A DNA stretch of 64,000 bases from Bacteroidota bacterium (GCA_049515655.1 JBEKTW010000012.1:8904-72903); one strand, 5' to 3'. Positions 35,170 through 51,687 are shown, numbered from the stretch's first letter. A program made the numbers and translations. The notes: a model not told the origin generated them from the sequence alone.

Positions 35170-35604
35170 TTACTTGCCGATATCCTCATTCCATAGCGCG
35201 GGATGTTCTTTGATGAAATGCTCCATCATCTTCACGCATTCATCCAAATCAAGGTCGATGACTTCCACCCCGTGTTCACGCATGAAGTCGCGCGAGCCGG
35301 AAAAGGTTCTCGATTCGCCGACGACAACTTTTCGGATATTGAATTGAACCACCGCCCCGCCGCACAGGTAACAGGGCATCAAGGTCGAATAAAGGGTTGT
35401 GTTTCGGTAGTCTCCTACCCGGCCGGCGTTGACGAGGCAATCGATTTCCGCGTGCAACATCGTATTTTTTTCCTGCACTCGTTTGTTGTGCCCGCGTCCG
35501 ATGATTGTCCCATCCCGAACAAGCACAGAGCCGATAGGAATCCCACCTTCGGAGAGTCCCTTTTTTGCCTCCTTTATCGCTTCAGACATGACCTTATCCA
35601 TCAT
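35170..35604 (-). CDS. CDA-fold zinc deaminase (yeast-type cytosine deaminase / guanine-deaminase-like)
   Basis: HAE...PCxxC zinc motif (HAEIDCLVNAG...TLMPCYLCGGAV). Overall architecture and length (144 aa) match FCY1-type cytosine deaminase and B. subtilis GuaD. Confidence 0.8.
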   Translation of the reverse strand: MMDKVMSEAIKEAKKGLSEGGIPIGSVLVRDGTIIGRGHNKRVQEKNTMLHAEIDCLVNAGRVGDYRNTTLYSTLMPCYLCGGAVVQFNIRKVVVGESRTFSGSRDFMREHGVEVIDLDLDECVKMMEHFIKEHPALWNEDIGK

Positions 35605-35710: not shown

Positions 35711-36943
35711 TCAGGTGAATTTCAGCCGCCTGACTGCCTCGAGCGTCGGCTCGATCACCGTGCCTGCACCCGCAACTTTCATCGCGCTTGCGATATCTTT
35801 CAAGCCGTTGCCGGTCAGCACGCACACGACTGTCTCATCCGATTTGACGAGACCGCCTTTGACTGCCTTTTTTAATCCCGCGTACGCGGCCGAGGCCGCA
35901 GGTTCGGAGAAAATCGCTTCGCCGCGCGCGAGTTCCGGAATCGCCGCGAGAATCTCATCGTCGCTCACTGTAAGGTATGCCCCCCCGGTTTCGCGCACGG
36001 CACGCACAGCACGCACACCGTCGCGCGGCATATCCGCGCTGATAGAATCCGCAACGGTTTGCGCATTGACGGCAGTGATCTTTTCTGTTCCGGCTTTCCA
36101 CGCGTTGTAACAGGCGGCCGAGCCTTCCGCTTGAATGCCCATGAGTTTCGGCATCCTGTCAATCCAGCCCAGGGCGAGCAAATCACGCAAGCCCTTCCAC
36201 AAACCGCTGATGATATTACCGTCGCCGACCGAAACGAAAATGGAGTCGGGCGTTTTCCAGCCTAGTTGTTCACACATCTCAATGGACGCGGTCTTCTTTC
36301 CTTCCACCGTATACGGGTTGAATGCAGTATTGCGGCAATACCAGCCGAATTCTTTCGAGACCTCCAGGCACAGGTCAAAGGCCTGGTCGTACGTACCTTT
36401 GACAAGGATGATGCGCGCACCGAAAATCAGCAGTTGGGCAATTTTCGCCTTCGGGGCCGTCTGGGGGACAAAAATCACCGCGGGCATTTTCGCAGCAGCG
36501 GCGAGACCTGCGAGCGCGGCGCCCGCATTACCGGTGCTTGCGGTTGTGATGACTTCAACACCCAGCTCACGCGCCTTTGCTACAACGACTGCGCTCGCAC
36601 GGTCCTTAAACGACGCGGTCGGATTGCGACCGTCGTCCTTGAGATACAGATGGCGCAATCCCAATCGTGGACCAAGAGTCGTCGAACGATAGAGCGGCGT
36701 CCAACCGACGTGAATCGGCGGCGCGGATGTGCGTGCATCGTCGAGCGGCAGAAGCGCCGAGTATCGCCAGATGGAGTAGTCGCGCGAATCGGAGATCGCA
36801 CGCGGAGAAGTTGATTCGTTGATTCGTTTGTAATTGAAAATCGTATCGAGGATACCATCAGACCCATGGTTGGGACAAACATAACGCGTGGTCCGGGGGT
36901 CGTACTCCGAGCCACATAGGGTACATTTGAAATGATAGTTCAT
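35711..36943 (-). CDS. threonine-synthase-like PLP-dependent enzyme (fold type II) with N-terminal Zn-ribbon
   Basis: PLP-lysine motif PTASFKDRA. Glycine-rich loop TASTGNAGAALA. N-terminal C-x2-C...C-x-x-H ribbon (MNYHFKCTLCGSEY..YVCPNHG). Start moved to the internal ATG at 36943. Confidence 0.75.
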   Translation of the reverse strand: MNYHFKCTLCGSEYDPRTTRYVCPNHGSDGILDTIFNYKRINESTSPRAISDSRDYSIWRYSALLPLDDARTSAPPIHVGWTPLYRSTTLGPRLGLRHLYLKDDGRNPTASFKDRASAVVVAKARELGVEVITTASTGNAGAALAGLAAAAKMPAVIFVPQTAPKAKIAQLLIFGARIILVKGTYDQAFDLCLEVSKEFGWYCRNTAFNPYTVEGKKTASIEMCEQLGWKTPDSIFVSVGDGNIISGLWKGLRDLLALGWIDRMPKLMGIQAEGSAACYNAWKAGTEKITAVNAQTVADSISADMPRDGVRAVRAVRETGGAYLTVSDDEILAAIPELARGEAIFSEPAASAAYAGLKKAVKGGLVKSDETVVCVLTGNGLKDIASAMKVAGAGTVIEPTLEAVRRLKFT

Positions 36944-36968
36944 ATGGAGACAACCACCTTCGAGATCA

Positions 36969-37985
36969 TTACCGTGTGATGTGCGTTCCGGTTTCACCGC
37001 GCAAGGCGCGCCCGATGTTTTCGGGATTCGTGATTATCGCGTGCTTGCCGCCGGCTTCGAGGAACCAGATGATCGCTTCAATCTTGGGAGCCATAGAACC
37101 TCTGGCAAAATGCGTGCCTTCCGCAAGATACCGTTTCGCCTCTGCTAGCGTTATCTTATCGAGCCATTGCTGATTCGGTTTGCCAAAATTAATTGCCACT
37201 TTCTCGACCGCCGTCGCAATCAGAAATAAATCGGCTTTGACTTTACTCGCGAGAAGACTGCTTGCAAAGTCCTTGTCGATAACTGCCGCGGTGCCCCGAT
37301 ACTCGCCATCGCCGACATCAATAACCGGTATCCCGCCGCCGCCAACCGTGATGACAATGATGCCCTGGTTCAGAACGGCTTCGATGGTTGACAGCTCGAC
37401 GATTTCTGCGGGCATAGGTGACGGAACCACGCGCCGCCAGCCGCGACCCGCATCTTCGACGACGCTCCAGTCCATTTCAGTTTTACGCCGCATCGCTTCA
37501 GCTTGATCCATGAATCCGCCGATGGGCTTCGATGGATGCTGGAAAGCCGGGTCCTTTTGATCTACCAGCACCTGCGTGATAATCGTCGCACATTGTTTCT
37601 TAATACCGCGATGATACAACTCGTTCTGCAGCGCTTGCTGCAATTCGTACCCGATCGCGCCCTGCGTATCCGCGCCGCATACATCAAGAGGAACTTCGTG
37701 CATTCCTTCGACTTTGGCGGCTATTTCGGAGCGGCGCAGGATGAAACCGACCTGCGGTCCATTGCCATGCCCGATTGCAACATCCCAACGTTGCTCGATC
37801 ATATCGGCGACATGATGTGCAGTTTCGCGTAATGCGCTTTCCTGATCTTCGACCGACTGGTGCTTTGTATCTTTGATGAGCGAGTTGCCGCCAATGGCGA
37901 TCACCGCGAGTTTGCGTTTGGGAACGCCGGGCCTTCTCCTGACAATTTTCCTCACCCTCTTCATTGTCTTCTTTTTCTTTGCCAT
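36969..37985 (-). CDS. arcC: carbamate kinase with a Lys/Arg-rich N-terminal extension
   Basis: CK core (KLAVIAIGGNSL..., VAIGHGNGPQVG, VITVGGGGIPV, GSMAPKIEA) preceded by MAKKKKTMKRVRKIVRRRPGVPKR. The track's longer N-terminus (38054) translates a repeat array and is rejected. Confidence 0.85.
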   Translation of the reverse strand: MAKKKKTMKRVRKIVRRRPGVPKRKLAVIAIGGNSLIKDTKHQSVEDQESALRETAHHVADMIEQRWDVAIGHGNGPQVGFILRRSEIAAKVEGMHEVPLDVCGADTQGAIGYELQQALQNELYHRGIKKQCATIITQVLVDQKDPAFQHPSKPIGGFMDQAEAMRRKTEMDWSVVEDAGRGWRRVVPSPMPAEIVELSTIEAVLNQGIIVITVGGGGIPVIDVGDGEYRGTAAVIDKDFASSLLASKVKADLFLIATAVEKVAINFGKPNQQWLDKITLAEAKRYLAEGTHFARGSMAPKIEAIIWFLEAGGKHAIITNPENIGRALRGETGTHITR

Positions 37986-38034
37986 GATTATTGTCCTTTT
38001 TTTGCCTTCGATAACCAGGTAACTACTCAACCAA

Positions 38035-38098
38035 TCAACGATCCAACTACCCAACTATTCAACTACTCAACGATCCAACCACTCAACTATTCAACTAT
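38035..38098. repeat. 32-bp tandem direct repeat x2 (tcaacgatccaactacccaactattcaactac)
   Basis: Two adjacent units differ at 3 positions. Same CAACTA-type 8-mer family as the arrays around the 39.1-39.8 kb cassette. Confidence 0.6.
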
Positions 38099-38106
38099 CG
38101 CACTAT

Positions 38107-39087
38107 TTAACCCATCGTCAATGCCATCGCCGCTTTCTGGGCGTGCATCCGATTTTCAGCTTCATCGTACACAACCGAGTTGGGTCCATCCATTACGCCG
38201 TCGGTCACTTCGATGTTGCGGTCGGCGGGAAGCGGATGCATGTAAATTGCATCGGGTTTTGCCAGCTTTAGCCGTCGCTCGTCCATAATCCACGACGAGT
38301 ATTTGCCGATGATTTTTGCGCCTTCTTTTTCGTCCGCCGTGTGGACCATCGCGCCCCACGACTTAGCGTAGACGACGTCGGCGCCCTTCATCGCGGCATC
38401 CATATCGTTAACCACCTCGAAGCCTGCGCCAAATTTCTTCGCTTGCTCACGCGCTTGATCCATGATCTCCGGCATCAGTTTAAATTCCGGAGGATGCGCA
38501 AGGACGACATCCATTCCAAAGCGCGGCATTTGCAGGATGAGTGATTGCGGTACCGACATCGGTTTCTGGTACGAGGAGGCGTATGCCCATGACACGACGA
38601 TCTTCTTGCGGCGCAGATCGCGTCCCTTCTTTTCGACAATCGTCATCAGGTCGGCGAGTATCTGGTACGGGTGATAGACGTCGCACTGCATATTCAGGAC
38701 CGGCACCCGCGAGTGTTTTGCAACTTCATTGATGTATTTGTTGCCGACGCCCCAGTCCACATGGCGGATGGCGATGCCGTCGAAATACCGGCCAAAAATT
38801 TCTCCGATTTCCTTCGGCGTGTCGCCGTGCGCAATCTGCGTCGACCGCGACTCGATGAATGCCGCGTGCCCGCCGAGTTGTGCCATCCCTGCTTCAAAGG
38901 AACCGCGCGTACGCGTGCTGGAGAAAAAGAATAGCATGGCGAGGACTTTATCGCGCAGCACTGCCTGCGATTCATTCAACGCGCGTTTGCGTTTTAAATC
39001 AAAAGCAACGTCGAGGACAGTTTCAACTTCTTCTTTGCTGAAATCGAGATCGCCGATTAAATCACGGCCATGTAGGTATGTTTGCAT
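38107..39087 (-). CDS. transcarbamylase (ATCase/OTCase superfamily), substrate unknown (YgeW-context paralog 1)
   Basis: STRTR carbamoyl-phosphate motif (FFFSSTRTRGSFEAG), HPYQ and HPLP motifs. 326 aa. Adjacent to carbamate kinase. Confidence 0.8.
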   Translation of the reverse strand: MQTYLHGRDLIGDLDFSKEEVETVLDVAFDLKRKRALNESQAVLRDKVLAMLFFFSSTRTRGSFEAGMAQLGGHAAFIESRSTQIAHGDTPKEIGEIFGRYFDGIAIRHVDWGVGNKYINEVAKHSRVPVLNMQCDVYHPYQILADLMTIVEKKGRDLRRKKIVVSWAYASSYQKPMSVPQSLILQMPRFGMDVVLAHPPEFKLMPEIMDQAREQAKKFGAGFEVVNDMDAAMKGADVVYAKSWGAMVHTADEKEGAKIIGKYSSWIMDERRLKLAKPDAIYMHPLPADRNIEVTDGVMDGPNSVVYDEAENRMHAQKAAMALTMG

Positions 39088-39102
39088 GGGTTCTTCTTTC
39101 GT

Positions 39103-39174
39103 TTGATAGTTCGATAGTTAAATAGTTCAATAGTTAGATAGTTGGATAGTTCAATAGTTCGATAGTTGGATCGT
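39103..39174. repeat. 8-bp-period tandem array (NNATAGTT) of about 9-11 units
   Basis: tgatagtt cgatagtt aaatagtt caatagtt agatagtt ggatagtt caatagtt cgatagtt ... It continues degenerately into the 3' end of the adjacent four-helix-bundle gene. Confidence 0.7.
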
Positions 39175-39597
39175 TCAGTCGTTTGGTGGTTTCTTCGTTG
39201 GATCGTCGGAGCGTTGTTTGTTCGATGCTGAGCCGTGTTCGCGAAGATACGCGATGAATGCATTCATGAGTTGTTTCGCTTCAGTTGCCAAATTGTAAAC
39301 GGCATCCATTTGTTCTTGCGTGACGTACTTGCGATCAAGCGCGAGGTTCAATTCAGACTGTACTTCGCTGGCTGAGCGGCGCGCAATCTTTAGAAACCGG
39401 ATGAATTCCGGATTATAGCCAGAATCGAAGCCCTCTGCTATATTGTGCATCACTGATCCTGCCGCCGCCTGAATCTGATCCCGTAGCCTAAAGTCTTTCG
39501 CAAATCGTGTTCCTTCAGTGAGATCATAGATCGCGTTTGCCAATTTCCGCGCCTTATGCCAACACTCTAGATCTTCAAAGTGTCTGATTGTCCCCAT
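39175..39597 (-). CDS. four-helix-bundle protein (23S rRNA intervening-sequence protein family, TIGR02436/PF05635-like), copy 1
   Basis: MGTIRHFEDLECWHKARKLANAIYDL...RDQIQAAAGSVMHNIAEG...FLKIARRSASEVQSELNLA matches the family consensus. The gene is AT-richer than its flanks. The track start at 39612 is a TTG. Confidence 0.8.
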   Translation of the reverse strand: MGTIRHFEDLECWHKARKLANAIYDLTEGTRFAKDFRLRDQIQAAAGSVMHNIAEGFDSGYNPEFIRFLKIARRSASEVQSELNLALDRKYVTQEQMDAVYNLATEAKQLMNAFIAYLREHGSASNKQRSDDPTKKPPND

Positions 39598-39770
39598 AAA
39601 AATCCTCCCCAACTGTCGAACAATTGAACGACCAAACGATCCAACGATTCAACAACCGAACAATCCAACTACCCAACTACTTAACTACGCAACCACACAA
39701 CTGTACGTTATTCAACGCCCGAACGATCTAACGACCCAACTATTTAACTACTCAACTACGTAACTGTAAG
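39598..39770. repeat. 8-bp-period array (NAACNANN / CAACTAYN), about 20 units, inverted relative to the 39103-39174 array
   Basis: gaacgacc aaacgatc caacgatt caacaacc ... caactacc caactact taactacg. The reverse complement of 39103-39174 aligns with it (shared ccaaacga, gaacgatccaac, caactat). Confidence 0.65.
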
Positions 39771-40751
39771 TTATTCAACAGCACCCAAAACGAGCGAGAT
39801 CAACCCCATTTTCAGGACGACGCCGTAGAATGCTTCCTGCCAGTAGCGCGCCCAGCGGGTAATGTCGACGTCCGGAGGAATCTCATCCATGCGTGGAAGC
39901 GAGTGGAGTAATATCATATCACTCTTTGCCTTGCTCATCAATAGCTCGCGCGTGATCTTGAAATTCGCCGGCGTGAGCGGTCGATCCTTCGTGGCTTCCT
40001 GTCGCGACTGCGAATAATCGGCCTGGATCACCGGCTCGACCAGAATCACATCGGCGTTCGCGATCGCCTGCTCGACGTGCTCCGCTTCGCTAAAGTTAAG
40101 TCCGTACTTCTTGAAATCCGCCTTGTATTCTTCCGGCATTCGCATGTCGGGCGAGTTTGGGAAAAGCGCATTCGGGGCCGGGCCGACGAAAGTGATGGGA
40201 CAATCGAATTGTGTAAGCGCATATCCGAGCGAGTGCATCGTGCGCATTCGCATGTCCCCAACGGCAAGCCAGCGCAGACCGTCAATGCGTCCGCGTTCGC
40301 GGAGGACCGTATAGAGGTCGGTGAGAATCTGGGTCGGGTGTTCGCCCCAGCCGTCACCGCCGTTGATGATCGGTACAGACGACCATTTCGCGGCCTCGTG
40401 CGGCGCCCCTTTCTGAAAATGGCGCATTGCAATCACGTCACCGTAGAACTCGAGCATCTTCACGGTGTCTTTGATGCTCTCCTGATAGTAATCGCCGGCG
40501 CGCGTCATTTTGGCGTCGGCAAAACCAGTAACGTGTCCGCCGAGGCGGTGCATGGCGGCTTCGTGGGAAAGACGCGTGCGCGTGCTGGGCTGATAGAACG
40601 CAGTCACGAGCGTCTTACCCTTGAGCATATCACTGTTCTGGCGATTGCGGGCGATCGGCTCCAGACGTTCCGCAATTTCAAACACGCGGAGGAACTCGCT
40701 TCGTTCAAATTCTTTAAGCGACAGAATGTCGCGACCGATGAAACTACGCAT
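39771..40751 (-). CDS. transcarbamylase (ATCase/OTCase superfamily), paralog 2
   Basis: STRTR motif (FYQPSTRTRLSHEAA), HPTQ, and an HSLP variant of the HPLP/HCLP motif. 326 aa. Confidence 0.8.
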   Translation of the reverse strand: MRSFIGRDILSLKEFERSEFLRVFEIAERLEPIARNRQNSDMLKGKTLVTAFYQPSTRTRLSHEAAMHRLGGHVTGFADAKMTRAGDYYQESIKDTVKMLEFYGDVIAMRHFQKGAPHEAAKWSSVPIINGGDGWGEHPTQILTDLYTVLRERGRIDGLRWLAVGDMRMRTMHSLGYALTQFDCPITFVGPAPNALFPNSPDMRMPEEYKADFKKYGLNFSEAEHVEQAIANADVILVEPVIQADYSQSRQEATKDRPLTPANFKITRELLMSKAKSDMILLHSLPRMDEIPPDVDITRWARYWQEAFYGVVLKMGLISLVLGAVE

Positions 40752-40831
40752 TGTGAAATTCTCCTTTTGTTTTGATGATTACCATTTTCAAACACTCTAC
40801 TCAGGCTCTTGGCTGTTAGCCCTTGGATTAC

Positions 40832-41383
40832 TTACACAATTTCCGACAACAATTCCTTCCTTGGCTGCGGGATAACGACCTTATTGACGAGAAGTCCTTT
40901 CTCCGCAACGATCGCCGCACCCGCGTCGACTGCCGATTGGACGGCGGCGACTTCGCCCGTCAGCGTGAGAAAGGCCTTTCCCCCCAGCGCCATGGCAAGC
41001 CGGATTTCGATCAATTGCACGCGCGCGGCCTTGACGGCGGCGTCGGCGGCTTCGATGAGCGCTGCCACGGAAAATGACTCCACAATCCCCAATGCTTCGA
41101 GCAGGTCGACTTTACTCGTGCCGCCGATTGCGGGAAAAACCGCGGCGTGCACATTCGGGATGACGAACGTGTCAATCACCGAACCCTGTGCAGCGACGCA
41201 TCCCGCTTCGACACTCGAGGTCACTGCGGCGACATCTCCCCCGACAAGCACCATGTACTTGCCCGAGCAGATTGTCCGCGAAAGGATGATTTCCACTTCC
41301 GCTGCTTTGAGCATTGCATCGGCGGCCTGGTAACCCGCCGCAATGCTCGTGAGTTCGATGAGGCCGATGGAGGTCTTAGTCAT
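40832..41383 (-). CDS. pduT: tandem BMC-domain shell protein, PduT-like (BMC-T with the single conserved pore cysteine)
   Basis: Two BMC domains (IGLIELTSIAAGYQAADAMLKAAEVEIIL...GGDVAAVTSSVEAG and LGIVESFSVAALIEAADAAVKAARVQLIEI...TGEVAAVQSAVDAG). The TICSGK motif corresponds to the [4Fe-4S]-ligating Cys of PduT. 183 aa. Confidence 0.85.
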   Translation of the reverse strand: MTKTSIGLIELTSIAAGYQAADAMLKAAEVEIILSRTICSGKYMVLVGGDVAAVTSSVEAGCVAAQGSVIDTFVIPNVHAAVFPAIGGTSKVDLLEALGIVESFSVAALIEAADAAVKAARVQLIEIRLAMALGGKAFLTLTGEVAAVQSAVDAGAAIVAEKGLLVNKVVIPQPRKELLSEIV

Positions 41384-41453
41384 AAAAACGTTCCATGATT
41401 GACGATGGATGATTGATGTCGGCCTTTAGCCCTTGGCTTCTGGCCTTTGGCAT
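41384..41453. repeat. low-complexity repeat (gatgattga units plus ggcctttagcccttggcttctggcctttggc)
   Basis: The reverse complement of 41811-41847 is about 85% identical to 41421-41451. The two flank four-helix-bundle gene copy 2 as inverted repeats. Confidence 0.6.
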
Positions 41454-41810
41454 TTAACTCTTAGAGATTTTCGATATCAGGGCGTTCGTCATCTTTTGCT
41501 CTGACGTCAGTAATCCTGCAACTTTTTCCACTTTCTCGGCTGGGACAAGACAGAGCTCTTGAAGAATCTGTATTTGAGTCTCAAGTTCAAACGCAGAGCC
41601 CATTGATAGCTCCAAGAATCTTTTGAATTCAATCTCACTATTTCTGCTACAGCCTTCTGCGATATTGGACGGAATTGAAACTGCGGCCCTGCACATTTGA
41701 GCCTTCAATCCGTACTGTTCTTCTTTCGGAAGTAATTTCGCAAGATCATACACTTGCTTCACAATCTCAATTCCATCCCTCCAAATAGTCAATTTTCTGA
41801 AGTCTCTCAT
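41454..41810 (-). CDS. four-helix-bundle protein (23S rRNA IVS protein family), copy 2
   Basis: MRDFRKLTIWRDGIEIVKQVYDLAKLLPKEEQYGLKAQMCRAAVSIPSNIAEGCSRNS..FKRFLELSMGSAFELETQIQIL is a textbook family match. About 43% GC. Confidence 0.85.
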   Translation of the reverse strand: MRDFRKLTIWRDGIEIVKQVYDLAKLLPKEEQYGLKAQMCRAAVSIPSNIAEGCSRNSEIEFKRFLELSMGSAFELETQIQILQELCLVPAEKVEKVAGLLTSEQKMTNALISKISKS

Positions 41811-41847
41811 CTTGCCTCCCAAAAGCCAAGAGCCAATGGCTAATAGC
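41811..41847. repeat. inverted partner of repeat 41421-41451 (ccaaaagccaagagccaatggctaatagc)
   Basis: Contains the 15-mer ccaatggctaatagc, whose exact reverse complement gctattagccattgg occurs in the 45438-45543 repeat. Confidence 0.55.
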
Positions 41848-43192
41848 TTTCTATTGTCACACTCTTCCCCACACTCTTCACCACTCCGTCAATACTCGCA
41901 TGCACTCTCGCCCCGAGTTTTCCTTCGGGAATTTCTCCGATGCACTGGCCTTTCACGACCATGTCGCCGGGGCGGACGATCGCGAGCGCCGGAAATCCCA
42001 TGTGCTGGGAGAGCGGAATCTCGACCTTCGACACCGTGATGTGCTTTTTGATGAACTCCGAGGGATGGTCGTAGTCGGTCACACCGAGACGTTTCACGAG
42101 TTGCCTCAGCGGCGTTCGCCTCCCCTCATACATGGGATGAGGTTGAACGTCCATATTCCCCGACCATTTGATTCCCTGTTCCTTCAAATCGTGTTTTGCC
42201 TTGTCGCAAGCTTCTTTGGGAAACAGGCTTTCAGGACACGCGTACAACGTGCAGAGCCCGCACGAGCAGCAGAGCTCTGCGTACTGATTCCAGATATTCT
42301 CTCCGGTCGTTGTAAACGAGAGACTCCGCATCACTTTGTGCGGCTGGATGTCGTAGCCGAGGAGGTAGCGCGGACACAATTCCGTGCAGTACGTGCACTG
42401 GTCACATGCTGATTTCCCTATCCGGTGCATCGATTTTTCCGGTTGACGCTTCCGCTGCACAAGAGTATGCTCAATCGGAAGAACCACCAAACCCGCCACC
42501 GTCTTTGTGATGGGAAGGTCAAGATTAAACTCCAATCTCCCCATCATGACACCGCCGACGAAGACCGCGAATCCCTTCGAGCCGTCGTAGGAGAACCCGC
42601 CCGCCGCTTCAATCGCTTTCGCGAAACTCATACCGATCGGTGCGAGAAAGGAACCCGGGTTCCTGACGGCGCCTGCGACGGTGAGGAATTTTTCCGTGAC
42701 CGGGTGACCTTCCGCCGCACGGACGATATTGTAGAGAGTCTCGACATTGTTGACCACGACGCCGACGTCGAGCGGAATTCCTTTCGGAGGGATCAGGCGC
42801 TTCGTCGCCTCATACACGAGGATGTATTCATCGCCGGATGGATAGAAATCTCCCAACAGATGGAACTTGGGATTATGCTTGGGATTATTGGCATGATTGG
42901 GATTATTGGAACTTAAGGCCGTGGAGAGTGCGTCGATAGCGAGCTTGTTCTTCTGCTTGATTCCAATGATCCCGGAACCCGCTCCCGTCGATTCCATGAG
43001 GAGTTGCAATCCCCGGACGACTTCCCCCGGATAATGGAGCATCAGTTCATAGTCCTTATGAATCAACGGCTCGCATTCGGCTCCGTTGGCGATGACGCAC
43101 CCGACCTTCGCGGAGGCCTTGACGTGTGCCGGGAATCCGGCTCCGCCCGCGCCGACAACCCCGGCGTTGCGTATTTTCTCTGAAATGCTCAC
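41840..43192 (-). CDS. RnfC/NuoF-like Fe-S flavoprotein, PduS-like
   Basis: GAGGAGFP NADH/FMN-site motif near the N-terminus. Two 4Fe-4S ferredoxin motifs (CDQCTYCTELCP; CCSCGLCTLYACP). 450 aa, GTG start. Lies immediately upstream of the PduT-like gene, as pduS-pduT do in pdu operons. Confidence 0.75.
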   Translation of the reverse strand: MSISEKIRNAGVVGAGGAGFPAHVKASAKVGCVIANGAECEPLIHKDYELMLHYPGEVVRGLQLLMESTGAGSGIIGIKQKNKLAIDALSTALSSNNPNHANNPKHNPKFHLLGDFYPSGDEYILVYEATKRLIPPKGIPLDVGVVVNNVETLYNIVRAAEGHPVTEKFLTVAGAVRNPGSFLAPIGMSFAKAIEAAGGFSYDGSKGFAVFVGGVMMGRLEFNLDLPITKTVAGLVVLPIEHTLVQRKRQPEKSMHRIGKSACDQCTYCTELCPRYLLGYDIQPHKVMRSLSFTTTGENIWNQYAELCCSCGLCTLYACPESLFPKEACDKAKHDLKEQGIKWSGNMDVQPHPMYEGRRTPLRQLVKRLGVTDYDHPSEFIKKHITVSKVEIPLSQHMGFPALAIVRPGDMVVKGQCIGEIPEGKLGARVHASIDGVVKSVGKSVTIESY

Positions 43193-43248: not shown

Positions 43249-44715
43249 TCAGCCCGCCCTGCCGACTTCGCCGTTGAACTCCTCAATCAGCTTGTCAAAA
43301 TAGGCGACTTCGTCCTCAAAGATTGCCCGCCAGTACCCGGGATCCCATTGTGCGTCCAGTTCTTCGGAAGACTTCCCCTGCTGTTCCACCCACGTGAAGT
43401 ACTTGAGATGGTGAATCGCCTTTCTTTCGTAGTACGTGAGCTCCTTGAAGAAATCGATGCCCTGGTGCAGAAGCGGTCCGGCATGGTCCTTTGCCGCATC
43501 GACGAGGGAATAGCTCCCACGTTCCTCACGAAGTTCTTTCAGCCGGGACCGGTACAATTCAACAGAGTCCGTGAAAATCGTGAAAACCACATCATTGCTC
43601 TTCAACTCGAAGTGCTTTGCCGTTTTTATTGCAGCAAGAAGATTTGAAATGCTCGAAATGCCCAACAGCGGCAGTCGTTCCAACTCGGCAGCCGATACTC
43701 CATTACCCCGAAGGTACTTCTTCCCGGCATCATCATTAAAGAGCCGCAGCACTCTCATGCAATCTTCATCGTCGATGGCAGCCACGGCGTCGGTATTCAG
43801 GACGTTATGAACCCACGGCACATGTTTATCGCCGATCCCTTCGATCCGGTGCGCACCGTATCCGTTCATGAACAGCGTGGGGCACTGCAATGCCTCTGAA
43901 GCAACGACCTTCAGATGCGGAAATTGTTTCTTGAGGTAATCTCCCGCGGCGATCGTTCCTGCTGAACCGGTCGCCGAGATGTACGCGGCAGCGTTTGCAT
44001 TTTTCATATTGAGGGAATGGAACGCTTCTTCTATTGCCGGTCCCGTAACGCTGTAGTGCCAGATCGGGTTGCCAAATTCTTCAAACTGATTGAAAATCAT
44101 GTTGACGGGATCGTTCTTCAGCTCCCAGCATTTGTCGTAAATTTCCTTCACGTTGGATTCGGTCCCGGGTGTCGCAATGACTTCAGCGCCGATCTCTTCC
44201 AGCCATTCGAATCGCTCCTTCGACATTCCCTCGGGCAGGATCGCGACGGCGGTGCAATCCAGCAGCGCGCAATCGAAAGCCCCACCCCGACAGAAATTAC
44301 CGGTCGACGGCCAGACGGCTTTGTGCTCTTCGGGGTCGAACTCACCGCTCACCAGTCGAGGCACGAGGCAGCCGAACGCCGCACCGACTTTGTGCGCTCC
44401 GGTCGGAAAGTATTTCCCGACCATTCCGATGATGCGCGCATCCACCCCCGTTATCGATTTCGGTATTTCGACATAGTTCACAGGTCCGAATGAACCGGTG
44501 CGAATATCATTCTTCCATGATATCCGGAAAAGGTTGAGAGGATTGACGTCCCACAGTCCGACCTTGGAGAGTTTCTTTTTAATCGACGCCGGAATTTTCG
44601 CCGGGTCTCTCATTTGCGCGAAGGTCGGAATCACGATTCCCCGCTTCTTGCATCGACGGGCAGTTTTCTTGATAACTTCCGGGGAAATGTTCTTTATAAT
44701 CTTCGATTTCTTCAT
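43249..44715 (-). CDS. PLP-dependent enzyme, fold type II (tryptophan-synthase-beta/cysteine-synthase superfamily), 488 aa
   Basis: Candidate PLP-lysine region FPTGAHKVGAAFG. Glycine-rich phosphate loop ISATGSAGTIAAG. Exact function unknown. Confidence 0.65.
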   Translation of the reverse strand: MKKSKIIKNISPEVIKKTARRCKKRGIVIPTFAQMRDPAKIPASIKKKLSKVGLWDVNPLNLFRISWKNDIRTGSFGPVNYVEIPKSITGVDARIIGMVGKYFPTGAHKVGAAFGCLVPRLVSGEFDPEEHKAVWPSTGNFCRGGAFDCALLDCTAVAILPEGMSKERFEWLEEIGAEVIATPGTESNVKEIYDKCWELKNDPVNMIFNQFEEFGNPIWHYSVTGPAIEEAFHSLNMKNANAAAYISATGSAGTIAAGDYLKKQFPHLKVVASEALQCPTLFMNGYGAHRIEGIGDKHVPWVHNVLNTDAVAAIDDEDCMRVLRLFNDDAGKKYLRGNGVSAAELERLPLLGISSISNLLAAIKTAKHFELKSNDVVFTIFTDSVELYRSRLKELREERGSYSLVDAAKDHAGPLLHQGIDFFKELTYYERKAIHHLKYFTWVEQQGKSSEELDAQWDPGYWRAIFEDEVAYFDKLIEEFNGEVGRAG

Positions 44716-44969
44716 TTTGATGTCCTCATTTACTATGGTTAATTGATATCAAGCTCTAAGGGGTTCTTCGTTCTTTGTCATTGGTTCTTAGTCATTGGTC
44801 ATTGCTCTCAGCTTTTGGCTCTTAGCTATTGGCTACCAGCTTCTGAATTCTGTCTTCTGTCTACTTGGTTCCTTGTTCTTTGTTATTGGTTCTTCGTTCT
44901 TTGTCATTCGTCACTGGTCATTAGTGCGTTGTTCCTGCTTCCGTCATCCATCTTCCATCATCCATCGTG
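44716..44969. repeat. modular low-complexity repeat (ttctttgtcattggtt..., ttttggctcttagctattggc, cagcttctgaattctgtcttctg)
   Basis: Same orientation and same modules as 45438-45543, making direct repeats that flank the CoA-binding gene. Confidence 0.6.
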
Positions 44970-45437
44970 TCAAATTCTCCCAAACATCCTCATAAGGAAT
45001 CGATGGAAACCGTGCGCTCCTTTCGGATCGACGAACATAAATAGACATCTGCCGGTTATTACCTCTGCGCCGGTGTCCTTTGCAATTTGAATGGATTTCT
45101 GGGTTTCCGACATCTGTTGAAACCAGATAATCTCGAAACGCCTGTTTGCCACTTGTTCCATCAAAGCGTCGGTGGCACGACGGGGAGTCGCCACAAAGAG
45201 ATTCCTTACAGTTTGTGGAATACCTGCAATACTGGGATTGCATGCCACGCCGTCGATTTGAGTCGCTTCGGGGTGAACCGGATGCACCGAATAGCCATGA
45301 GTTCGAAGATGTTCGAAAAGCTTGTATCCAAATTTCTTCTTATCTCTTGATACTCCTGCAATGGCAATGTCTCTGGCCGAGAGGAATTTTTGAATCAGCT
45401 CCGAAGAGGTCATCCGGTCAATCATGTTCTTTGTCAT
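44970..45437 (-). CDS. CoA-binding domain protein (YccU/YneT-like)
   Basis: IAIAGVSRDKKKFGYKLFEHLRTHGYSVHPVHP matches the CoA_binding-domain consensus (IAVVGAS..P.R.G..V...L...GY.V.PVNP). About 48% GC, lower than its flanks. Confidence 0.7.
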   Translation of the reverse strand: MTKNMIDRMTSSELIQKFLSARDIAIAGVSRDKKKFGYKLFEHLRTHGYSVHPVHPEATQIDGVACNPSIAGIPQTVRNLFVATPRRATDALMEQVANRRFEIIWFQQMSETQKSIQIAKDTGAEVITGRCLFMFVDPKGAHGFHRFLMRMFGRI

Positions 45438-45543
45438 TGGTCATTGGTTCTTGCTTTTGGCTTTTGGCTTTTGGCTATTAGCCATTGGCCTTGGGCTGCC
45501 GGCTTCTGAATTCTGTATTCTGACTACTGGGCTTCTAATTGAC
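45438..45543. repeat. modular low-complexity repeat, direct partner of 44716-44969
   Basis: catgttctttgtcattggtcattggttcttgcttttggcttttggcttttggctattagccattggcc...ccggcttctgaattctgtattctg. Confidence 0.6.
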
Positions 45544-46869
45544 TTACAGTCTCTTCCATAACTCCGCCGCACACTCGCGCGCCCGAGCGTTGATACGTTC
45601 TTCGTCGATATTGAGCATCAACCGGCGGCCTTCCATCAATACATTTCCGCTCACAATCGTCGTGTCTACGGCAAACTGCGACGCTCCGAACAACAGATGA
45701 CCGAAGACGTTTGTGCCGTCGATCGGCGTCGTGGCATCATAATCGATGATGGCAATATCGGCAGCACACCCTTCACGCAGCTCTCCCAGCGGGACACCGA
45801 AGATTTGCCCGCCAATCGCCGGATTGTTCACGAAGAGCGCGTTCGTCACCTCGGACCATCCAATCGACGGGTTGCTTCCGCGGAGGTGCTGCATCCAGAG
45901 CGCAACGCGCAATTCTTCAAGCATGTTCGTCGTCATCGCATCCGTTCCGAGCCCGACGCGTATGCCGCGTTTCTGCATGGCAATAATGTCGGCGATTCCC
46001 ACGGCATTGTTCCCGTTCGATTGCGGGTTGTGAACGACCGTTGTACCCGTGCTTGAAAGAATATCCATCTCTTTCTCATCACAGTGCACACAGTGCGCAG
46101 CGATCGTCTGCTGCCCCAGTACATCAAATTTCTTCAACCTTTCAACGACCCGCATGCCGAAATGCTGCTCGGCGTACTCTTCGTCGCTCGCCGCTTCGGC
46201 GACGTGGACGTGAAAACCGGTCTTGAGGTCGCGTCCCAGCCTCGAAGCCGCCTCCAGGGTGTTGTCCGACAAGGTAAACGACGCGTGAAGTCCGAACAGA
46301 GCAGACACCGTGTGATCATTTCGACCCGTGCACTCGCGAATAAACTCTGCATTTTCATCCAATCCCTCTCTCGCAATTCGATCACCATCTCTGTCCGAAA
46401 GTTCATAGCAGAGACAGGCTCGGAGCCCGGTTTCGCGGACCGCCCCCTCGATCGCCTTCAACGAACCGCGGACTGCCCCGGGGCTCGCATGATGGTCGAT
46501 AAGCGTCGTGGTGCCGTGCCGGATAGACTCAATCAGGGCGACGAGCGCGCTGTAGTAGCAGTCTTCGGTTGTGAGCGCGGAATCCAGGCGCCACCAGAGA
46601 TTTTTCAGAACACCGACAAAATCGCCGGCAGGTTTTGCCTTCGTCAGACCTCGTGCAAACGAGCTGTACAAATGCGTATGGGCATTGATGAAACCCGGCA
46701 CAACGAGCTTCCGGCGTGCATCGATTCGCTCGGCCCCCTTTCCAATCTTGTCACCTTCCGGGACAATCCTGCTGATCCGTCCATCCTCGACGAGAACGGA
46801 ATGACCGTGAAGAACCTCGGGCGACTTCCCGAGCGTAACCAACGTTCCATTTTCAATGATAAGTGACAT
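45544..46869 (-). CDS. ssnA: SsnA-family amidohydrolase (chlorohydrolase/aminohydrolase), paralog 1
   Basis: HxH metal motif (PGFINAHTHLY). SsnA-specific block LKNLWWRLDSALTTEDCYYSAL...TTLIDHHASPGAVRGSL. Start set at internal ATG 46869 (MSLIIENG), 5 nt after the upstream gene's stop. Confidence 0.8.
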   Translation of the reverse strand: MSLIIENGTLVTLGKSPEVLHGHSVLVEDGRISRIVPEGDKIGKGAERIDARRKLVVPGFINAHTHLYSSFARGLTKAKPAGDFVGVLKNLWWRLDSALTTEDCYYSALVALIESIRHGTTTLIDHHASPGAVRGSLKAIEGAVRETGLRACLCYELSDRDGDRIAREGLDENAEFIRECTGRNDHTVSALFGLHASFTLSDNTLEAASRLGRDLKTGFHVHVAEAASDEEYAEQHFGMRVVERLKKFDVLGQQTIAAHCVHCDEKEMDILSSTGTTVVHNPQSNGNNAVGIADIIAMQKRGIRVGLGTDAMTTNMLEELRVALWMQHLRGSNPSIGWSEVTNALFVNNPAIGGQIFGVPLGELREGCAADIAIIDYDATTPIDGTNVFGHLLFGASQFAVDTTIVSGNVLMEGRRLMLNIDEERINARARECAAELWKRL

Positions 46870-46873
46870 CGAT

Positions 46874-49372
46874 TCATCCTTCTTGTAAAAGTGAGAGTTC
46901 ACGCCTGGACCTGTCCCGCATGGAGATTGCACCGGAGAAGCATTTCTGGGCACATAATGAGCAGCCGACGCATCGGGCAGGATCGAACTGCGGAATCCTA
47001 TTCTTATCCAGTTCGATGGCCTCGTATGCGCACCGCGTGCAATTGCCGCAGTGCTGACACAATTCGTGCACAACCGTCGGGATCTTCTTTGTCGCAGTAA
47101 GCTCACCGAATCCTGTGATGGGATCGGGCAGCGCAGAACCGATCAGCGCTTCCACGGACCGGATTCCGCGTTCTTCCATCAGATAGCTCAGTCCGGAGTG
47201 CAGTTCGTCGACGATGCCGTAGCCGTACTTCATGGCGATCGTGCAGAACTGAACTGTCCGAACGCCGAGCGCGAGAAAATTAGCTGCCGACTTGTAGTCC
47301 ATTGGCCCACCGTTGCCGGAGACCGTGATCCCCATGCCCGAGACCTTGGCCAGCGTCAGATTGCTGATCGGCAGAACACCTTCACCCGACATACCAACGA
47401 CAACTCCTTCGTCCCACGTTCGCTTCTTCCCACGGCGGAATGCAAGCGATGGAAAACTGTTCGCCAGCGTGACACCCGCCTTCTTGCGTGGATACCGGGA
47501 AAAAACCTCCTTGATAGCGCTCACAATCGGATAAATGGCGGTGACGGCCGCCGTCAGTTTGAAGAGCTTCGGGACATCGGCGCTTCCGGCCTGCATCACC
47601 CAGTCGACGATCTTGGCAGTCAGTTCTGCGTCCTGGGAGACGATGTCGCCCTTGGTGCCGTCTCCGCCCTGCGGGCATGAAAGACTGTATTCGATCCCCA
47701 TGACACCGGCGGATTCAAGTTTCCGGGTGTTCGACTGCCATGCTGCGCTATCCTTCTCGTCATCACCTGTTACCGGCCCGCCGGTCGAGGCGGCAGTCAA
47801 CCGGTCGGGGAACTCACGTCGCAGACGTTCGACTTCACGCCGAACGCGGTCGAGCGCATGGCCCGATACATTGTCGCAATTCGCATATGTCGACCTTGAG
47901 AATGCAAACATATACTCGGACGGAATGTGAATCGGAACATTATCGAAAGCGGTCTTCATGATACCACCAGCCCAGCCCGACTCGTACGCTCTTTTCATTT
48001 GATTGTACCCGTCAGTGGGCGGGCCCGCAGAAAGCAGAAAAGGAGAAAGAATTTTACGACCGAAGAAATCAGCTGTCAGCGGAACCGGAATCATCAACCG
48101 ACCCGGCATGACGGTGCGGTTCTTGGTTGCCTTTTCAATCCGTTTGGCGGAGTGGCCGGACACGAAAGCGTCGAGTTCCAGAGCGGCGTTCTTGCCGGCA
48201 GCTACTGCTTCGACGACCGTCGTCGGACCGTTGACCATGTCGCCCGCATAAAAAACGCCTTTCGTATGCGACATCTGAAGGGAAGACCGTGCACCGGCGG
48301 CAATAATCACGAAGTCGACATCCGGGCGCGTTTGCTCGGTTCCTTTGAGATCGACGACGTTGCTCGGATGGAATTTCTTTCCCTTCGGCAGGGTAACCTT
48401 CTGCGTCCGCAAACCGGTGATGCGCCTTCCGCTCCTCAGGATTTCCAGCACCCTCACTCGTCCGCTGACCGCAATACCCGTTTCTGCAATTGCATGACGC
48501 TCCTTGGCCGTGAGGGGCATCTCAGACCATGTCTCGAGCGCAAACATCTCCACGAATGTTGCACCTCGTGCAAGCGCCTCCTCAGCGCAGTCGAGCGCCA
48601 CTGCTCCGCCTCCGATGACTGCCACGCGCTTTCCCTTCACCGTGAATCGGGACGGGTCGCGGAGATAGTCCATCCATTCGACGGCCACGCTGCTGTTCTC
48701 CATCTTCGGAGTAAAGGACTCATCGAGGCCCGTCGCTACCAGAATGGCATCGTATCCGTTTCTTGATGCAGGAGACCATTTGCCCTTCTTGAACGTAATA
48801 TCACCAAGCAACTTCAGGAAATCGATATCGGTTTTGAGAACTTCCGGCGACAATCTAGATTCCGGGATGAGACGACACATGCCGCCGGGCTGCTTTGTCG
48901 TGTCCATAACGTCGACAGCGTACCCCTTCTGTGCGAGCAATGACGCAGCGCCGAGACCCGCCGGACCGGCGCCGTAGACTCCGACCTTGTTTCCATTTGA
49001 ATCCGCCTTTTCAAACTCAGGCATGACGCCAAGCTGTTTTGCTTTTTCAATGATTGTTGCCTGGACGGCCGGAATATTCACCGCGGAGTCGAACGTCCGG
49101 TGAACGCAGGCCTTCATGCAATGCCGGTCGGGACAAACTGCGCCGCAAACACCGCCGAGAGGATTACTTCCCATGATGAGCGCGGCGGAGCGTTTGAAAT
49201 CGGAATGACTGCCTGCCTTCACGGCCATAATAAAGTCCGCGGGCGAACAATCGACAGGGCATGCCTCCTTGCACGGCTTCTCTTCGCAATACTCGCATTT
49301 CTCGACCTCGGCGCGGAGTTGAGCGTCAGTGAGAAATCCTGTAACGCAATTCGTTTTTTTTACCTTGGTCAT
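46874..49372 (-). CDS. YgfK-like Fe-S flavoprotein (dihydropyrimidine-dehydrogenase-like fusion: GltD-like FAD/NAD domain, DHOD-like TIM barrel, 2x[4Fe-4S])
   Basis: N-terminal Cys clusters. Dinucleotide fold VGVYGAGPAGLGAASLLAQKGYAVDVMD. C-terminal ferredoxin pair CQHCGNCTRCAYEAI...CVGCSLCAQKC. ATG at 49372; the track's 49411 is a TTG. Confidence 0.8.
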   Translation of the reverse strand: MTKVKKTNCVTGFLTDAQLRAEVEKCEYCEEKPCKEACPVDCSPADFIMAVKAGSHSDFKRSAALIMGSNPLGGVCGAVCPDRHCMKACVHRTFDSAVNIPAVQATIIEKAKQLGVMPEFEKADSNGNKVGVYGAGPAGLGAASLLAQKGYAVDVMDTTKQPGGMCRLIPESRLSPEVLKTDIDFLKLLGDITFKKGKWSPASRNGYDAILVATGLDESFTPKMENSSVAVEWMDYLRDPSRFTVKGKRVAVIGGGAVALDCAEEALARGATFVEMFALETWSEMPLTAKERHAIAETGIAVSGRVRVLEILRSGRRITGLRTQKVTLPKGKKFHPSNVVDLKGTEQTRPDVDFVIIAAGARSSLQMSHTKGVFYAGDMVNGPTTVVEAVAAGKNAALELDAFVSGHSAKRIEKATKNRTVMPGRLMIPVPLTADFFGRKILSPFLLSAGPPTDGYNQMKRAYESGWAGGIMKTAFDNVPIHIPSEYMFAFSRSTYANCDNVSGHALDRVRREVERLRREFPDRLTAASTGGPVTGDDEKDSAAWQSNTRKLESAGVMGIEYSLSCPQGGDGTKGDIVSQDAELTAKIVDWVMQAGSADVPKLFKLTAAVTAIYPIVSAIKEVFSRYPRKKAGVTLANSFPSLAFRRGKKRTWDEGVVVGMSGEGVLPISNLTLAKVSGMGITVSGNGGPMDYKSAANFLALGVRTVQFCTIAMKYGYGIVDELHSGLSYLMEERGIRSVEALIGSALPDPITGFGELTATKKIPTVVHELCQHCGNCTRCAYEAIELDKNRIPQFDPARCVGCSLCAQKCFSGAISMRDRSRRELSLLQEG

Positions 49373-49608
49373 CTGATCACCCTCTTTCTTTTGATCACGT
49401 GGAGTCTTCAATTACTCGACCTGAATTTCGATCTGCCGCTGGGAGTCATCGAGAGTTTGAATGGCTCTTGCGATCTGATCGTGTCCTGTCCAACGGCACA
49501 GATTACTGCTAATTGCGGTGTGCATATCGTTTCCCGTGTTTGTGAAGTGCGAGCGTAAGCGAACATTTGGGCGAGGGGATCAAACCACAAACACCGTGTT
49601 AGGCGAGG

Positions 49609-50010
49609 TCATTTGCTCTGCTCAATGTCATCTAAAAAATCCAAAAGATGATCCCGCACAACAACAAATGAAGGACCCCCTCCAAATTCAACCCCTATCG
49701 CCGCTGCCTCCAACACCTCATCCCTTGTAGCCCCAGCCAAAATCGCATTGTTTGCATGGTTGGCAAGGCAAGGGATACATCTTGTAGCTACCGCAGCCGT
49801 GACGGCCATTAGCTCTTTTTGTTTTCTATCTAAAGCACCATGCTTGTAGTAGTGTTTTACCAATTCATTGAAACCATTGTAAAGGTTGGGTGCCTCCTTT
49901 TCCAAACGCTCTCTGTTGGCTTTTCTCTTTTTCAAAATATCTTTCACATTATGCATGGATTTACCTTCTATTTTATCATTCTGGGCCATTACTGCCTTAC
50001 ACTTTACCAT
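49609..50010 (-). CDS. carboxymuconolactone-decarboxylase/AhpD-like family protein (AT-rich insertion)
   Basis: AhpD-like core with CxxC-type motif (AAVATRCIPCLANHAN). About 43% GC versus about 58% for neighbours. Confidence 0.7.
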   Translation of the reverse strand: MVKCKAVMAQNDKIEGKSMHNVKDILKKRKANRERLEKEAPNLYNGFNELVKHYYKHGALDRKQKELMAVTAAVATRCIPCLANHANNAILAGATRDEVLEAAAIGVEFGGGPSFVVVRDHLLDFLDDIEQSK

Positions 50011-51202: not shown

Positions 51203-51225
51203 TCTTCCCGGGTTACTCTTCCCTC

Positions 51226-51687
51226 TCACTTTGCCGCATCCTTGATCGCTTCGACAATCTGAACGTAACCGGTGCACCGGCAGAGATTGCCCGAGATAGC
51301 GATTCGAATGTCCTCTTCGGAAGGATGGCCGTTCTTATCCAGCAATGCTTTCGCACTCATTAACATTCCCGGTGTACAGAAGCCGCAATGTGCTGCATCG
51401 TGGTCCATGAAAGATTCTTGAAGCGGGTCGAGTCTACCGTCCGAGATCAAACCCTCCACCGTCAGGATTTTTTTGCCGTCAATCTGAGGCGCGAGCACAA
51501 GACACGAATTCACGGCTGCTCCGTCGAGCAGAACCGTGCAGGCGCCGCATTCCCCCACTTCGCAACCGCATTTCGTTCCGGTAAATCCGAGTTCATCCCG
51601 CAGAATCTCAAGCAGCGTTCTGTCGGGGAAAATCGAGAGCACATATTCCCGACCGTTGATGGTTGTATGGATTGGGACTTGGGGCAT
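51226..51687 (-). CDS. molybdenum hydroxylase [2Fe-2S] small subunit (XdhC/CoxS-like)
   Basis: Plant-type ferredoxin motif CGCEVGECGACTV. Second cluster motif CGFCTPGMLMS...NLCRCTGY. Confidence 0.9.
   Translation of the reverse strand: MPQVPIHTTINGREYVLSIFPDRTLLEILRDELGFTGTKCGCEVGECGACTVLLDGAAVNSCLVLAPQIDGKKILTVEGLISDGRLDPLQESFMDHDAAHCGFCTPGMLMSAKALLDKNGHPSEEDIRIAISGNLCRCTGYVQIVEAIKDAAK

Follow-up and report, generated by a model that had tools for sequence, protein, structure and literature searches.

The proteins PduS and PduT form an electron-transfer module, also termed MNdh/BMC-T^SE, that was recently recast as a generic electron exporter of aldehyde-oxidising bacterial microcompartments (BMCs) (PMC11626177, PMC11275729). 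In a stretch of 64,000 nucleotides from a Bacteroidota bacterium (GCA_049515655.1 JBEKTW010000012.1:8904-72903; hereafter the window, with positions counted from its first letter), a PduS-like and a PduT-like gene (S and T below) lie inside an operon whose other genes appear to make up a variant of the reductive uric-acid (2,8-dioxopurine) pathway. We propose that the pair is a genuine PduS/PduT relay that would balance NAD(H) during purine degradation, most likely across a shell encoded elsewhere in the genome, and we give this reading a probability of about 0.5.

The module itself is known already, and its orphan satellite position in these phyla has been catalogued. What is new, and apparently unreported, is its presence among the genes of a purine and xanthine dehydrogenase (XDH) operon; we found no literature linking PduS/PduT, BMC domains or the microcompartment type FRAG1 with xanthine dehydrogenase or purine degradation. 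The same module has been joined at least twice to anaerobic purine operons, beside several kinds of molybdenum hydroxylase, in bacteria whose FRAG1/ACI microcompartment type has no known substrate. In environmental Bacteroidota, Ignavibacteriota and Acidobacteriota, the reductive uric-acid pathway gains by it an accessory part that had not been reported. Should the linkage be functional, the role of the module reaches beyond aldehyde chemistry and there is a testable handle on an orphan class of organelle; if it is not, the locus is simply another satellite S/T pair.

The PduT-like and PduS-like proteins

The 183-residue product of the T gene matches the BMC domain family PF00936 over two stretches (E 2.8e-48, 162 bits against a Pfam cut-off of 24.5). 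Its nearest solved structures are 3NWG (E 5e-56), Citrobacter PduT 3PAC (E 3e-49) and Salmonella PduT 3N79, and identity to the solved PduT-type structures is about 50-60% over 175 residues, as judged by inspection of the alignments. The sequence TICSGK of the window protein pairs with TICPGK of 3PAC, which puts Cys39, in the first BMC domain, at the position that carries the axial [4Fe-4S] cluster of the PduT trimer; such a cluster is predicted here as well. This pore cysteine is kept in 66 of 66 non-redundant relatives, as are the two edge ("antiparallel") lysines, K26 and K118, with the XDH-linked clade included. The first-pass annotation of this DNA, made by a model from the sequence alone, had called the protein a PduT-type shell protein with tandem domains and one pore cysteine, and the domain matches, the alignment and the conservation bear it out. 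The protein is PduT-like and not an equivalog of the enteric protein, because its score for the NCBIfam equivalog model TIGR02526 (eut_PduT) is 122.1 bits against a cut-off of 250.3. Seven metagenome contigs carry a protein identical to it.

The 450-residue product of the S gene carries, in order, the Pfam domains Complex1_51K, SLBB, Fer4_17 and RnfC_N. It has the glycine-rich motif GAGGAGFP, for NAD(H)/FMN, and two cysteine-rich cluster motifs, CDQCTYCTELCP and CCSCGLCTLYACP, and all three are also kept in relatives. When aligned to RnfC (7ZC6_C), residues 381-443 correspond to RnfC 24-85 and residues 6-321 to RnfC 126-416, so that the barrel-sandwich domain sits at the end opposite to its place in RnfC; a circular permutation relative to RnfC has been reported for PduS/MNdh (PMC11275729). 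One sentence in section 6 of that paper assigns the pfam13375 domain to the C-terminal end of RnfC and the N-terminal end of MNdh, whereas the paper's own domain list and the 7ZC6 alignment have it the other way round, at the N-terminus in RnfC and at the C-terminus in PduS/MNdh. With this domain order, the permuted alignment and the motifs, the protein is of the PduS type, as had been suggested.

A genuine RnfC subunit of a membrane Rnf complex, the alternative that the first-pass annotation had named, has a probability close to nil. S does share with RnfC the FMN/NADH domain, the SLBB domain, the domain with two [4Fe-4S] clusters and the barrel-sandwich domain, RnfC chains are its best solved relatives and RnfC models are its top NCBIfam matches; against this, every NCBIfam RnfC and NuoF model scores under its cut-off (221.8 against 245.95 bits for RnfC), the domains are permuted, no rnf partner gene was seen among the genes of the 64-kb window, and S is paired with a BMC-T gene in 94 of the 96 related loci described below. 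The window's S also has an insertion of about 15 residues rich in Asn, Pro and His (NNPNHANNPKHNPK, at about residues 95-110, window 42863..42910), which is encoded by an in-frame 9/18-nucleotide tandem repeat and is present in no other aligned relative.

Compared with the described PduS/PduT module (PMC11626177), the pair has the same S architecture, including the permutation, a tandem-BMC T with a single pore cysteine, and the same gene order, S then T. It differs in that T falls under the eut_PduT cut-off, S has the repeat-derived insertion, an unrelated small gene splits S and T, the neighbourhood lacks an aldehyde dehydrogenase, a B12 enzyme and further shell genes, and a purine operon surrounds the pair.

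The small gene, of 122 codons, encodes a four-helix-bundle protein of the 23S_rRNA_IVP family (IVP) and lies within the 456 nucleotides that separate S from T. The pduS gene had been described as directly upstream of pduT; the order is right, and direct adjacency is not. The IVP gene was considered as a part of the module and rejected, as most loci lack it and other lineages carry copies that are not orthologous to it. Using our own locus labels, the S-T spacer has no IVP gene in L010, L015 and L007, holds a non-orthologous IVP gene in L178 (9554..9910; Ignavibacteria) and a PDDEXK_3 gene in L076 (9447..9935; "Chlorobi"), and seems to be a preferred landing place of small hitch-hiking genes.

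Lineage, shell genes and linkage to purine operons

The pair belongs to a large lineage of Ignavibacteriota, Bacteroidota and Acidobacteriota. Homologues of T number in the thousands, and the best 120, which are 78-100% identical to it, are named from Bacteroidota, Ignavibacteria and Terriglobia. A species-level scan with one genome per species gave 80 loci, from Ignavibacteriota, Bacteroidota, Bryobacterales/Solibacteraceae, Rhodothermaceae and "Chlorobi", and together with 16 metagenome loci these make up the 96 loci compared here. S and T are adjacent in 94 of them. Pairs that are not linked to purine genes sit among housekeeping genes, for example in the order ClpB-PRTase-M64-SpoIIE-S-T in Melioribacteraceae. 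These neighbours (a ClpB-like protein, a phosphoribosyltransferase, a peptidase M64 and a SpoIIE phosphatase) were examined as a clue to function and rejected as lineage synteny of housekeeping genes.

As the first-pass annotation had noted, the window holds no BMC-H or BMC-P gene; T is the only BMC match in six frames of the 64 kb (hmmsearch --max), and the best BMC-P match has an E value of 1.4. Such an orphan position is the rule for this lineage, because in all 96 loci the 10 kb on either side of the pair are free of BMC-H and BMC-P genes, and six-frame profile searches of 99 related loci found none beyond T. A metagenome scan with the BMC-P profile returned only main loci of the HO type (BMC-H, BMC-P, aldehyde dehydrogenase, T, P, P), mostly of high GC, and no FRAG1 shell gene from it could be traced to long contigs bearing T.

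In one Ignavibacteria locus (L178) an aldehyde dehydrogenase gene (10644..12173) is convergent with pduT, and a gene for a DeoC-family aldolase (15740..16609) lies 5 kb off; the two families are typical of sugar-phosphate metabolosomes. As a regular partner of T the aldehyde dehydrogenase was rejected, as it occurs near T in only 4 of the 99 related loci.

The catalogue of BMC loci gives the lineage its names (PMC8217296). FRAG1 is a type made of shell proteins only, most prominent in Ignavibacteria, with genes at up to six genomic sites. It comprises a BMC-P triplet, two BMC-H and, in 24 of 57 cases, a PduS/T pair, and is accompanied by neither enzymes nor encapsulation peptides (PMC8217296, Supplementary Data 2). 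In the part of the catalogue's BMC-T tree used here, the wisteria clade is labelled FRAG1 (sat) and is found in Ignavibacteriae, the adjoining tealBlue clade is labelled ACI (sat) and belongs to Acidobacteria, and the dusk clade is mostly PVM (sat); a satellite is, by the catalogue's definition, merged with a main locus (PMC8217296). Two of our loci correspond to catalogued genes in that part of the tree, L035 to CVV24_07465 (FRAG1 sat) and L083 to SBA4_1010065 (ACI sat), and the window's T is 72% identical to the former and 76% to the latter. In a tree of S and T the window falls into the lineage of the catalogued wisteria and tealBlue members, as part of a sister clade; the window's XDH-linked sub-clade is not visibly represented in the same part of the catalogue tree.

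The window's pair thus resembles the FRAG1 and ACI satellites in its phyla and in its isolated two-gene arrangement at a distance from shell genes, and differs in its context, since the catalogue, in the parts used here, describes FRAG1 as shell-only, without enzymes and with no mention of xanthine dehydrogenase or purine genes (PMC8217296). The first-pass annotation had offered, as one of two options, a satellite of a purine-utilising microcompartment with its main shell locus elsewhere. The satellite part of that option is the one favoured, and the purine-utilising microcompartment is not, the lineage being labelled FRAG1 (sat) or ACI (sat).

The purine-catabolism context, also proposed at the outset, stands on two SsnA-family proteins, a YgeY-family hydrolase and a carbamate kinase, all above curated cut-offs (Table 1). 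From 56509 down to 35170 every gene lies on the minus strand with short gaps, 17-160 nucleotides around the pair, and no terminator-like site was found on that strand between 38.5 and 45.5 kb. Six first context checks on the closest homologues had suggested that the purine linkage is universal, which was rejected: purine or XDH genes lie near the pair in 5 of the 80 species-level genomes. Within the window's own clade, XDH linkage is found in seven of nine sampled close homologues. In a neighbour-joining tree of concatenated S and T (100 bootstraps), the linked pairs form two clades, one per phylum. A Terriglobia clade nests in Acidobacteria (100/100), and the window's Bacteroidota/Ignavibacteria-like clade, with one unlinked member (L076), is recovered in 99/100; a single clade of all linked pairs is recovered in 0/100. 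The pair has therefore been recruited into purine/XDH operons at least twice independently, and the linkage is not random, though it is limited to two sub-clades.

At least five arrangements of the pair with purine or molybdenum-hydroxylase genes were found across the loci. Genes for XdhAB precede S and T in L007, L096 and L179, and the run in L007 is tightly packed, with gaps of 2-27 nucleotides. In L177 the pair is accompanied by an XdhD-like fusion of Fe-S and molybdenum parts without an FAD subunit, by a pyridoxal phosphate (PLP) enzyme and by YgeY. L052 (781..6033) has a molybdenum-hydroxylase large subunit and then a dihaem cytochrome c gene directly upstream of S-T, with an XdhC-family gene downstream; its XDH-family neighbour is another kind of enzyme than the window's. 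L010 and L015 have the order XDH-PreT-PreA-PLP488-S-T-YgeY, in which PLP488 is a PLP enzyme of 488 residues, and the Terriglobia clade has either OTC-CK-S-T (carbamoyltransferase, carbamate kinase, S, T) or S-T in mid-operon. Within the window's clade, adjacency to an XDH-family enzyme survives at least four rearrangements. The insertion site of the pair is the junction of the PLP enzyme and YgeY in relatives, and that of the PLP enzyme and a carbamoyltransferase in the window.

The same purine operon also occurs without the pair. In L180, L181 and L182, PLP488 (77-79% identical) is followed directly by YgeY, with no S or T. The pair is thus an accessory, optional cassette and not a core component of the pathway, because these sister operons run without it. 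All three sister loci hold a second XDH-family enzyme beside a three-subunit or XdhD-like one and an XdhC maturation gene; the second enzyme is of the XdhAB type in L180 and L182 and a separate molybdenum subunit in L181. L180 and L182 also have a MocA-like gene.

The proposed relay and competing explanations

In the mechanism that we propose, S and T would be co-transcribed with the two redox enzymes of the pathway, an XdhABC-type molybdenum hydroxylase and a PreT/PreA-type reductase. PduS would exchange two electrons with NAD(H) and hand them singly, via its own clusters, to the pore cluster of PduT, and the relay would in this way balance the NAD(H) pool while purines are degraded. For MNdh/BMC-T^SE, NADH oxidation has been shown, and the published model has its Fe-S clusters in line with the T pore, at a spacing of 7-9 Å to the T pore cluster (PMC11275729, PMC11626177). 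The transfer would most likely cross a shell whose BMC-H and BMC-P genes sit elsewhere in the genome. Flow could go either way, bringing electrons into a four-electron reductive pathway or disposing of the NADH that arises from oxidation of xanthine or hypoxanthine. A shell-bound relay is the version that our analysis favours, backed by the satellite labels of the catalogue and, indirectly, by the invariant K26 and K118; we know of no role for such edge lysines outside facet tiling.

Several points weigh against this reading. The placement of the shell elsewhere, which we regard as most likely, comes from catalogue labels of relatives that are only 72-76% identical. No open reading frame resembling PF00171 aldehyde dehydrogenase is present in the window, and to our knowledge the purine pathway has no aldehyde step. 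MNdh is said to occur only in BMC types with an aldehyde dehydrogenase (PMC11626177). The XDH and the reductase do not obviously need an additional NADH module, because the one has its own FAD subunit and the other its own NAD(P)-binding domain. None of the purine enzymes of the operon showed an extension resembling an encapsulation peptide, 75 of the 80 species-level genomes have no purine neighbour, and the three sister operons do without S and T.

A broader proposal is that the relay of this clade works with XDH-family enzymes instead of an aldehyde dehydrogenase, either tied to FRAG1 or free of a shell. We offer it tentatively, as a possibility that is open to considerable doubt. If it is true in the first version, the enzyme-less FRAG1 of Ignavibacteria-like bacteria would be tied to purine and molybdenum-hydroxylase redox chemistry, the first clue to its function; in the second, a former shell protein would now work without a shell, as a [4Fe-4S] adaptor that links an NADH dehydrogenase to molybdenum hydroxylases.

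The second version, close to the other option of the first-pass annotation, is itself an explanation of the locus that competes with a shell-bound relay. The PduT-like trimer would then serve as an oligomeric, ferredoxin-like adaptor joining PduS (NADH/FMN) to XDH-family enzymes. It accords with the range of partners, since pairs of the window's clade adjoin four kinds of molybdenum hydroxylase, including one without FAD (L177) and one with a cytochrome c (L052), and with the close packing of the XDH-S-T run in L007. The missing shell genes (0 of 96 loci within 10 kb), the lack of an aldehyde dehydrogenase in the window and of encapsulation-peptide-like extensions on the purine enzymes, and the catalogue's description of FRAG1 as having neither enzymes nor encapsulation peptides (PMC8217296) point the same way. 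However, BMC-H and BMC-P are present in the genomes from which the catalogued T proteins of this lineage derive, with "satellite" meaning merged with a main locus, as far as the catalogue entries used here go (PMC8217296). Both edge lysines are invariant, most pairs of the lineage have no molybdenum-hydroxylase neighbour, and the XDH of the window has an FAD subunit of its own. We consider a shell-free pair unlikely, although it deserves serious attention.

The pair could also be a passenger, serving an unrelated aldehyde-type metabolosome encoded elsewhere after it had landed in, or been rearranged into, a purine operon to which it is not coupled. The sister operons without the pair and the 75 of 80 species-level genomes that hold it among unrelated housekeeping genes are in line with this, as is its published role of generic NAD+ recycling for aldehyde dehydrogenases. 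These operons evidently tolerate insertions, because small selfish-looking genes (IVP, PDDEXK_3, DUF1016 and ORF6N) have been inserted in them too. Yet two independent clades in two phyla put the pair inside purine/XDH operons, and in the window's clade the XDH linkage is present in seven of nine sampled close homologues and outlasts at least four rearrangements; in the window, short gaps separate the pair from neighbours encoded on the same strand, and no terminator-like site intervenes. An uncoupled passenger seems improbable on balance.

Lastly, the first-pass annotation had mentioned that a xanthine-utilisation class of BMC had been proposed from genome mining. The class does exist: Xau, proposed for anaerobic xanthine degradation (Ravcheev 2019, PMC6620236), is BUF1 in the catalogue (Sutter 2021, PMC8217296), and it shares with the window the company of BMC-domain proteins, anaerobic purine degradation and an XDH-family enzyme. 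That the locus is a satellite of this class is nonetheless very improbable, since Xau/BUF1 loci have a full shell set of their own and are mostly from Firmicutes, the MNdh/BMC-T^SE module is stated to be absent from them (PMC11626177), the window has no shell gene besides T, and its enzymes are those of the SsnA/YgeY/carbamate-kinase reductive pathway and not the Xau set (PMC6620236).

The surrounding operon and the rest of the window

Table 1. Genes of the same-strand run around pduS and pduT, in descending order of position, with the matches on which each assignment is based.
Feature	Coordinates	Strand	Basis
Second SsnA-family amidohydrolase	55178..56509	-	NF005540, 458.9 bits against cut-off 444
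XDH-family molybdopterin subunit	52738..55143	-	MoCoBD_1, MoCoBD_2, Ald_Xan_dh_C; PucD/XdhA models 559-572 bits, under cut-off
XDH-family FAD subunit	51884..52741	-	FAD_binding_5, CO_deh_flav_C; XdhB 203 bits
XDH-family [2Fe-2S] subunit	51226..51690	-	Fer2_2, Fer2; XdhC_XDHase 186 bits
YgeY-family M20 hydrolase	49997..51277	-	NF009555, 515 bits against cut-off 321
Carboxymuconolactone-decarboxylase (CMD)-family protein	49609..50010	-	PF02627
PreT/PreA-type fused flavo-Fe-S reductase	46874..49411	-	Fer4_20, Pyr_redox_2, C-terminal 4Fe-4S dicluster (Fer4_21/Fer4_7)
SsnA amidohydrolase	45544..47106	-	NF005540, 528.5 bits against cut-off 444; reading frame overlaps upstream gene
CoA-binding-domain protein	44970..45437	-	PF13380
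PLP enzyme, 488 aa, CysK-like core with N- and C-terminal extensions	43249..44715	-	PF00291
PduS/MNdh-type NAD(H)-FMN, 2x[4Fe-4S] protein, 450 aa, RnfC barrel-sandwich domain C-terminal	41840..43192	-	Pfam, permuted RnfC alignment
23S_rRNA_IVP four-helix-bundle protein, 122 aa, between pduS and pduT	41454..41822	-	PF05635, E 9.7e-33
PduT-type Fe-S BMC-T shell protein (BMC-T^SE), 183 aa	40832..41383	-	PF00936 twice, PDB relatives
ATCase-like carbamoyltransferase, directly downstream of pduT	39771..40751	-	OTCace_N, OTCace; TIGR00670, 237.2 bits against cut-off 236.95
Second 23S_rRNA_IVP protein inside the operon	39175..39612	-	PF05635, E 3.9e-32
OTC/YgeW-like carbamoyltransferase	38107..39087	-	Pfam; OTC and YgeW models all under cut-off
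Carbamate kinase	36969..38054	-	NF009007, 428 bits against cut-off 266
ThrC-like PLP enzyme	35711..36997	-	PF00291, E 3e-80; NF006050, 307 bits against cut-off 303
CDA/TadA-fold deaminase, last gene of the same-strand run	35170..35604	-	PF00383

The reductive uric-acid pathway was described in 2025 in E. coli and Clostridia (10.1101/2025.05.19.654654; 10.1101/2025.04.24.650524) and achieves a net four-electron reduction via XdhD and YgfK/UacX with NAD(P)H or ferredoxin (10.1101/2025.05.19.654654). Judged by the families of its products, the operon of the window is probably a variant of this pathway, with SsnA, YgeY, carbamate kinase, carbamoyltransferases, an XDH-family enzyme and a flavo-Fe-S reductase together in one operon as in the described cluster. 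The XDH, a three-subunit enzyme of the XdhABC type, and the PreT/PreA fusion are assigned at family level.

The operon departs from the described cluster in several components. The gene that had been named ygfK encodes instead the PreT/PreA-type fusion, whose product scores 142 bits with the YgfK model against a cut-off of 835. Its C-terminal half (residues 445-836) reaches 197 bits with the PreA model, under the cut-off of 335. PreT and PreA, the latter with the PF01180 domain DHO_dh, are separate genes in L010 (4577..7095) and L015 and are fused in the window, and the fusion, which resembles dihydropyrimidine dehydrogenase, is the predicted functional counterpart of YgfK/UacX. HyuA and YgeX models are absent among the matches listed, which are the best 25 families for some proteins; the second SsnA paralogue and two other PLP enzymes stand in the operon in their place. 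Both carbamoyltransferases score under the YgeW cut-off. The PduS/PduT cassette is part of no described version of the pathway.

Members of the PLP488 family are 76-81% identical, and the gene lies directly upstream of pduS in several loci of the window's clade. The true starts of the PreT/PreA fusion, SsnA, YgeY and carbamate kinase are probably internal to the tabulated frames, because these open reading frames begin upstream of the gene calls on identical contigs; SsnA as a called gene in L001 has 441 residues.

Two terminal stretches in the operon were considered as encapsulation peptides. The XDH molybdenum subunit ends in a very basic, low-complexity tail of 45 residues (window 52738..52875; ...KTRQKPQRPLRPRKKPPGRKRSSKKR) that is not conserved in relatives, and the carbamate kinase frame has a very basic, low-complexity N-terminal extension (about 37915..37985; MAKKKKTMKRVRKIVRRRPGVPKRK). 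Since neither resembles an amphipathic helix and the tail of the XDH lacks conservation, both candidates were rejected.

Spacers of the operon are filled by tandem arrays with a period of 7-8 nucleotides, such as CAACTATC and GTTCGATA, and with higher-order periods of 24-63 nucleotides; many lie beside IVP genes. The arrays were located at 38021..38097, 39101..39177, 39627..39780, 44762..44966 and 45433..45523, and the motif CCAAGGGCTAA is repeated at 40816, 41426, 41833 and 45478. The rest of the window is ordinary, with cargo proteins of the type IX secretion system (T9SS), an RND efflux set, Obg, NusB and PBP1. The segment 14001..24000 has a lower GC content, 0.43-0.48 against about 0.54, and encodes a TetR regulator, the RND efflux set (HlyD, AcrB, OEP), a DUF3108 protein and a CDP-alcohol phosphatidyltransferase.

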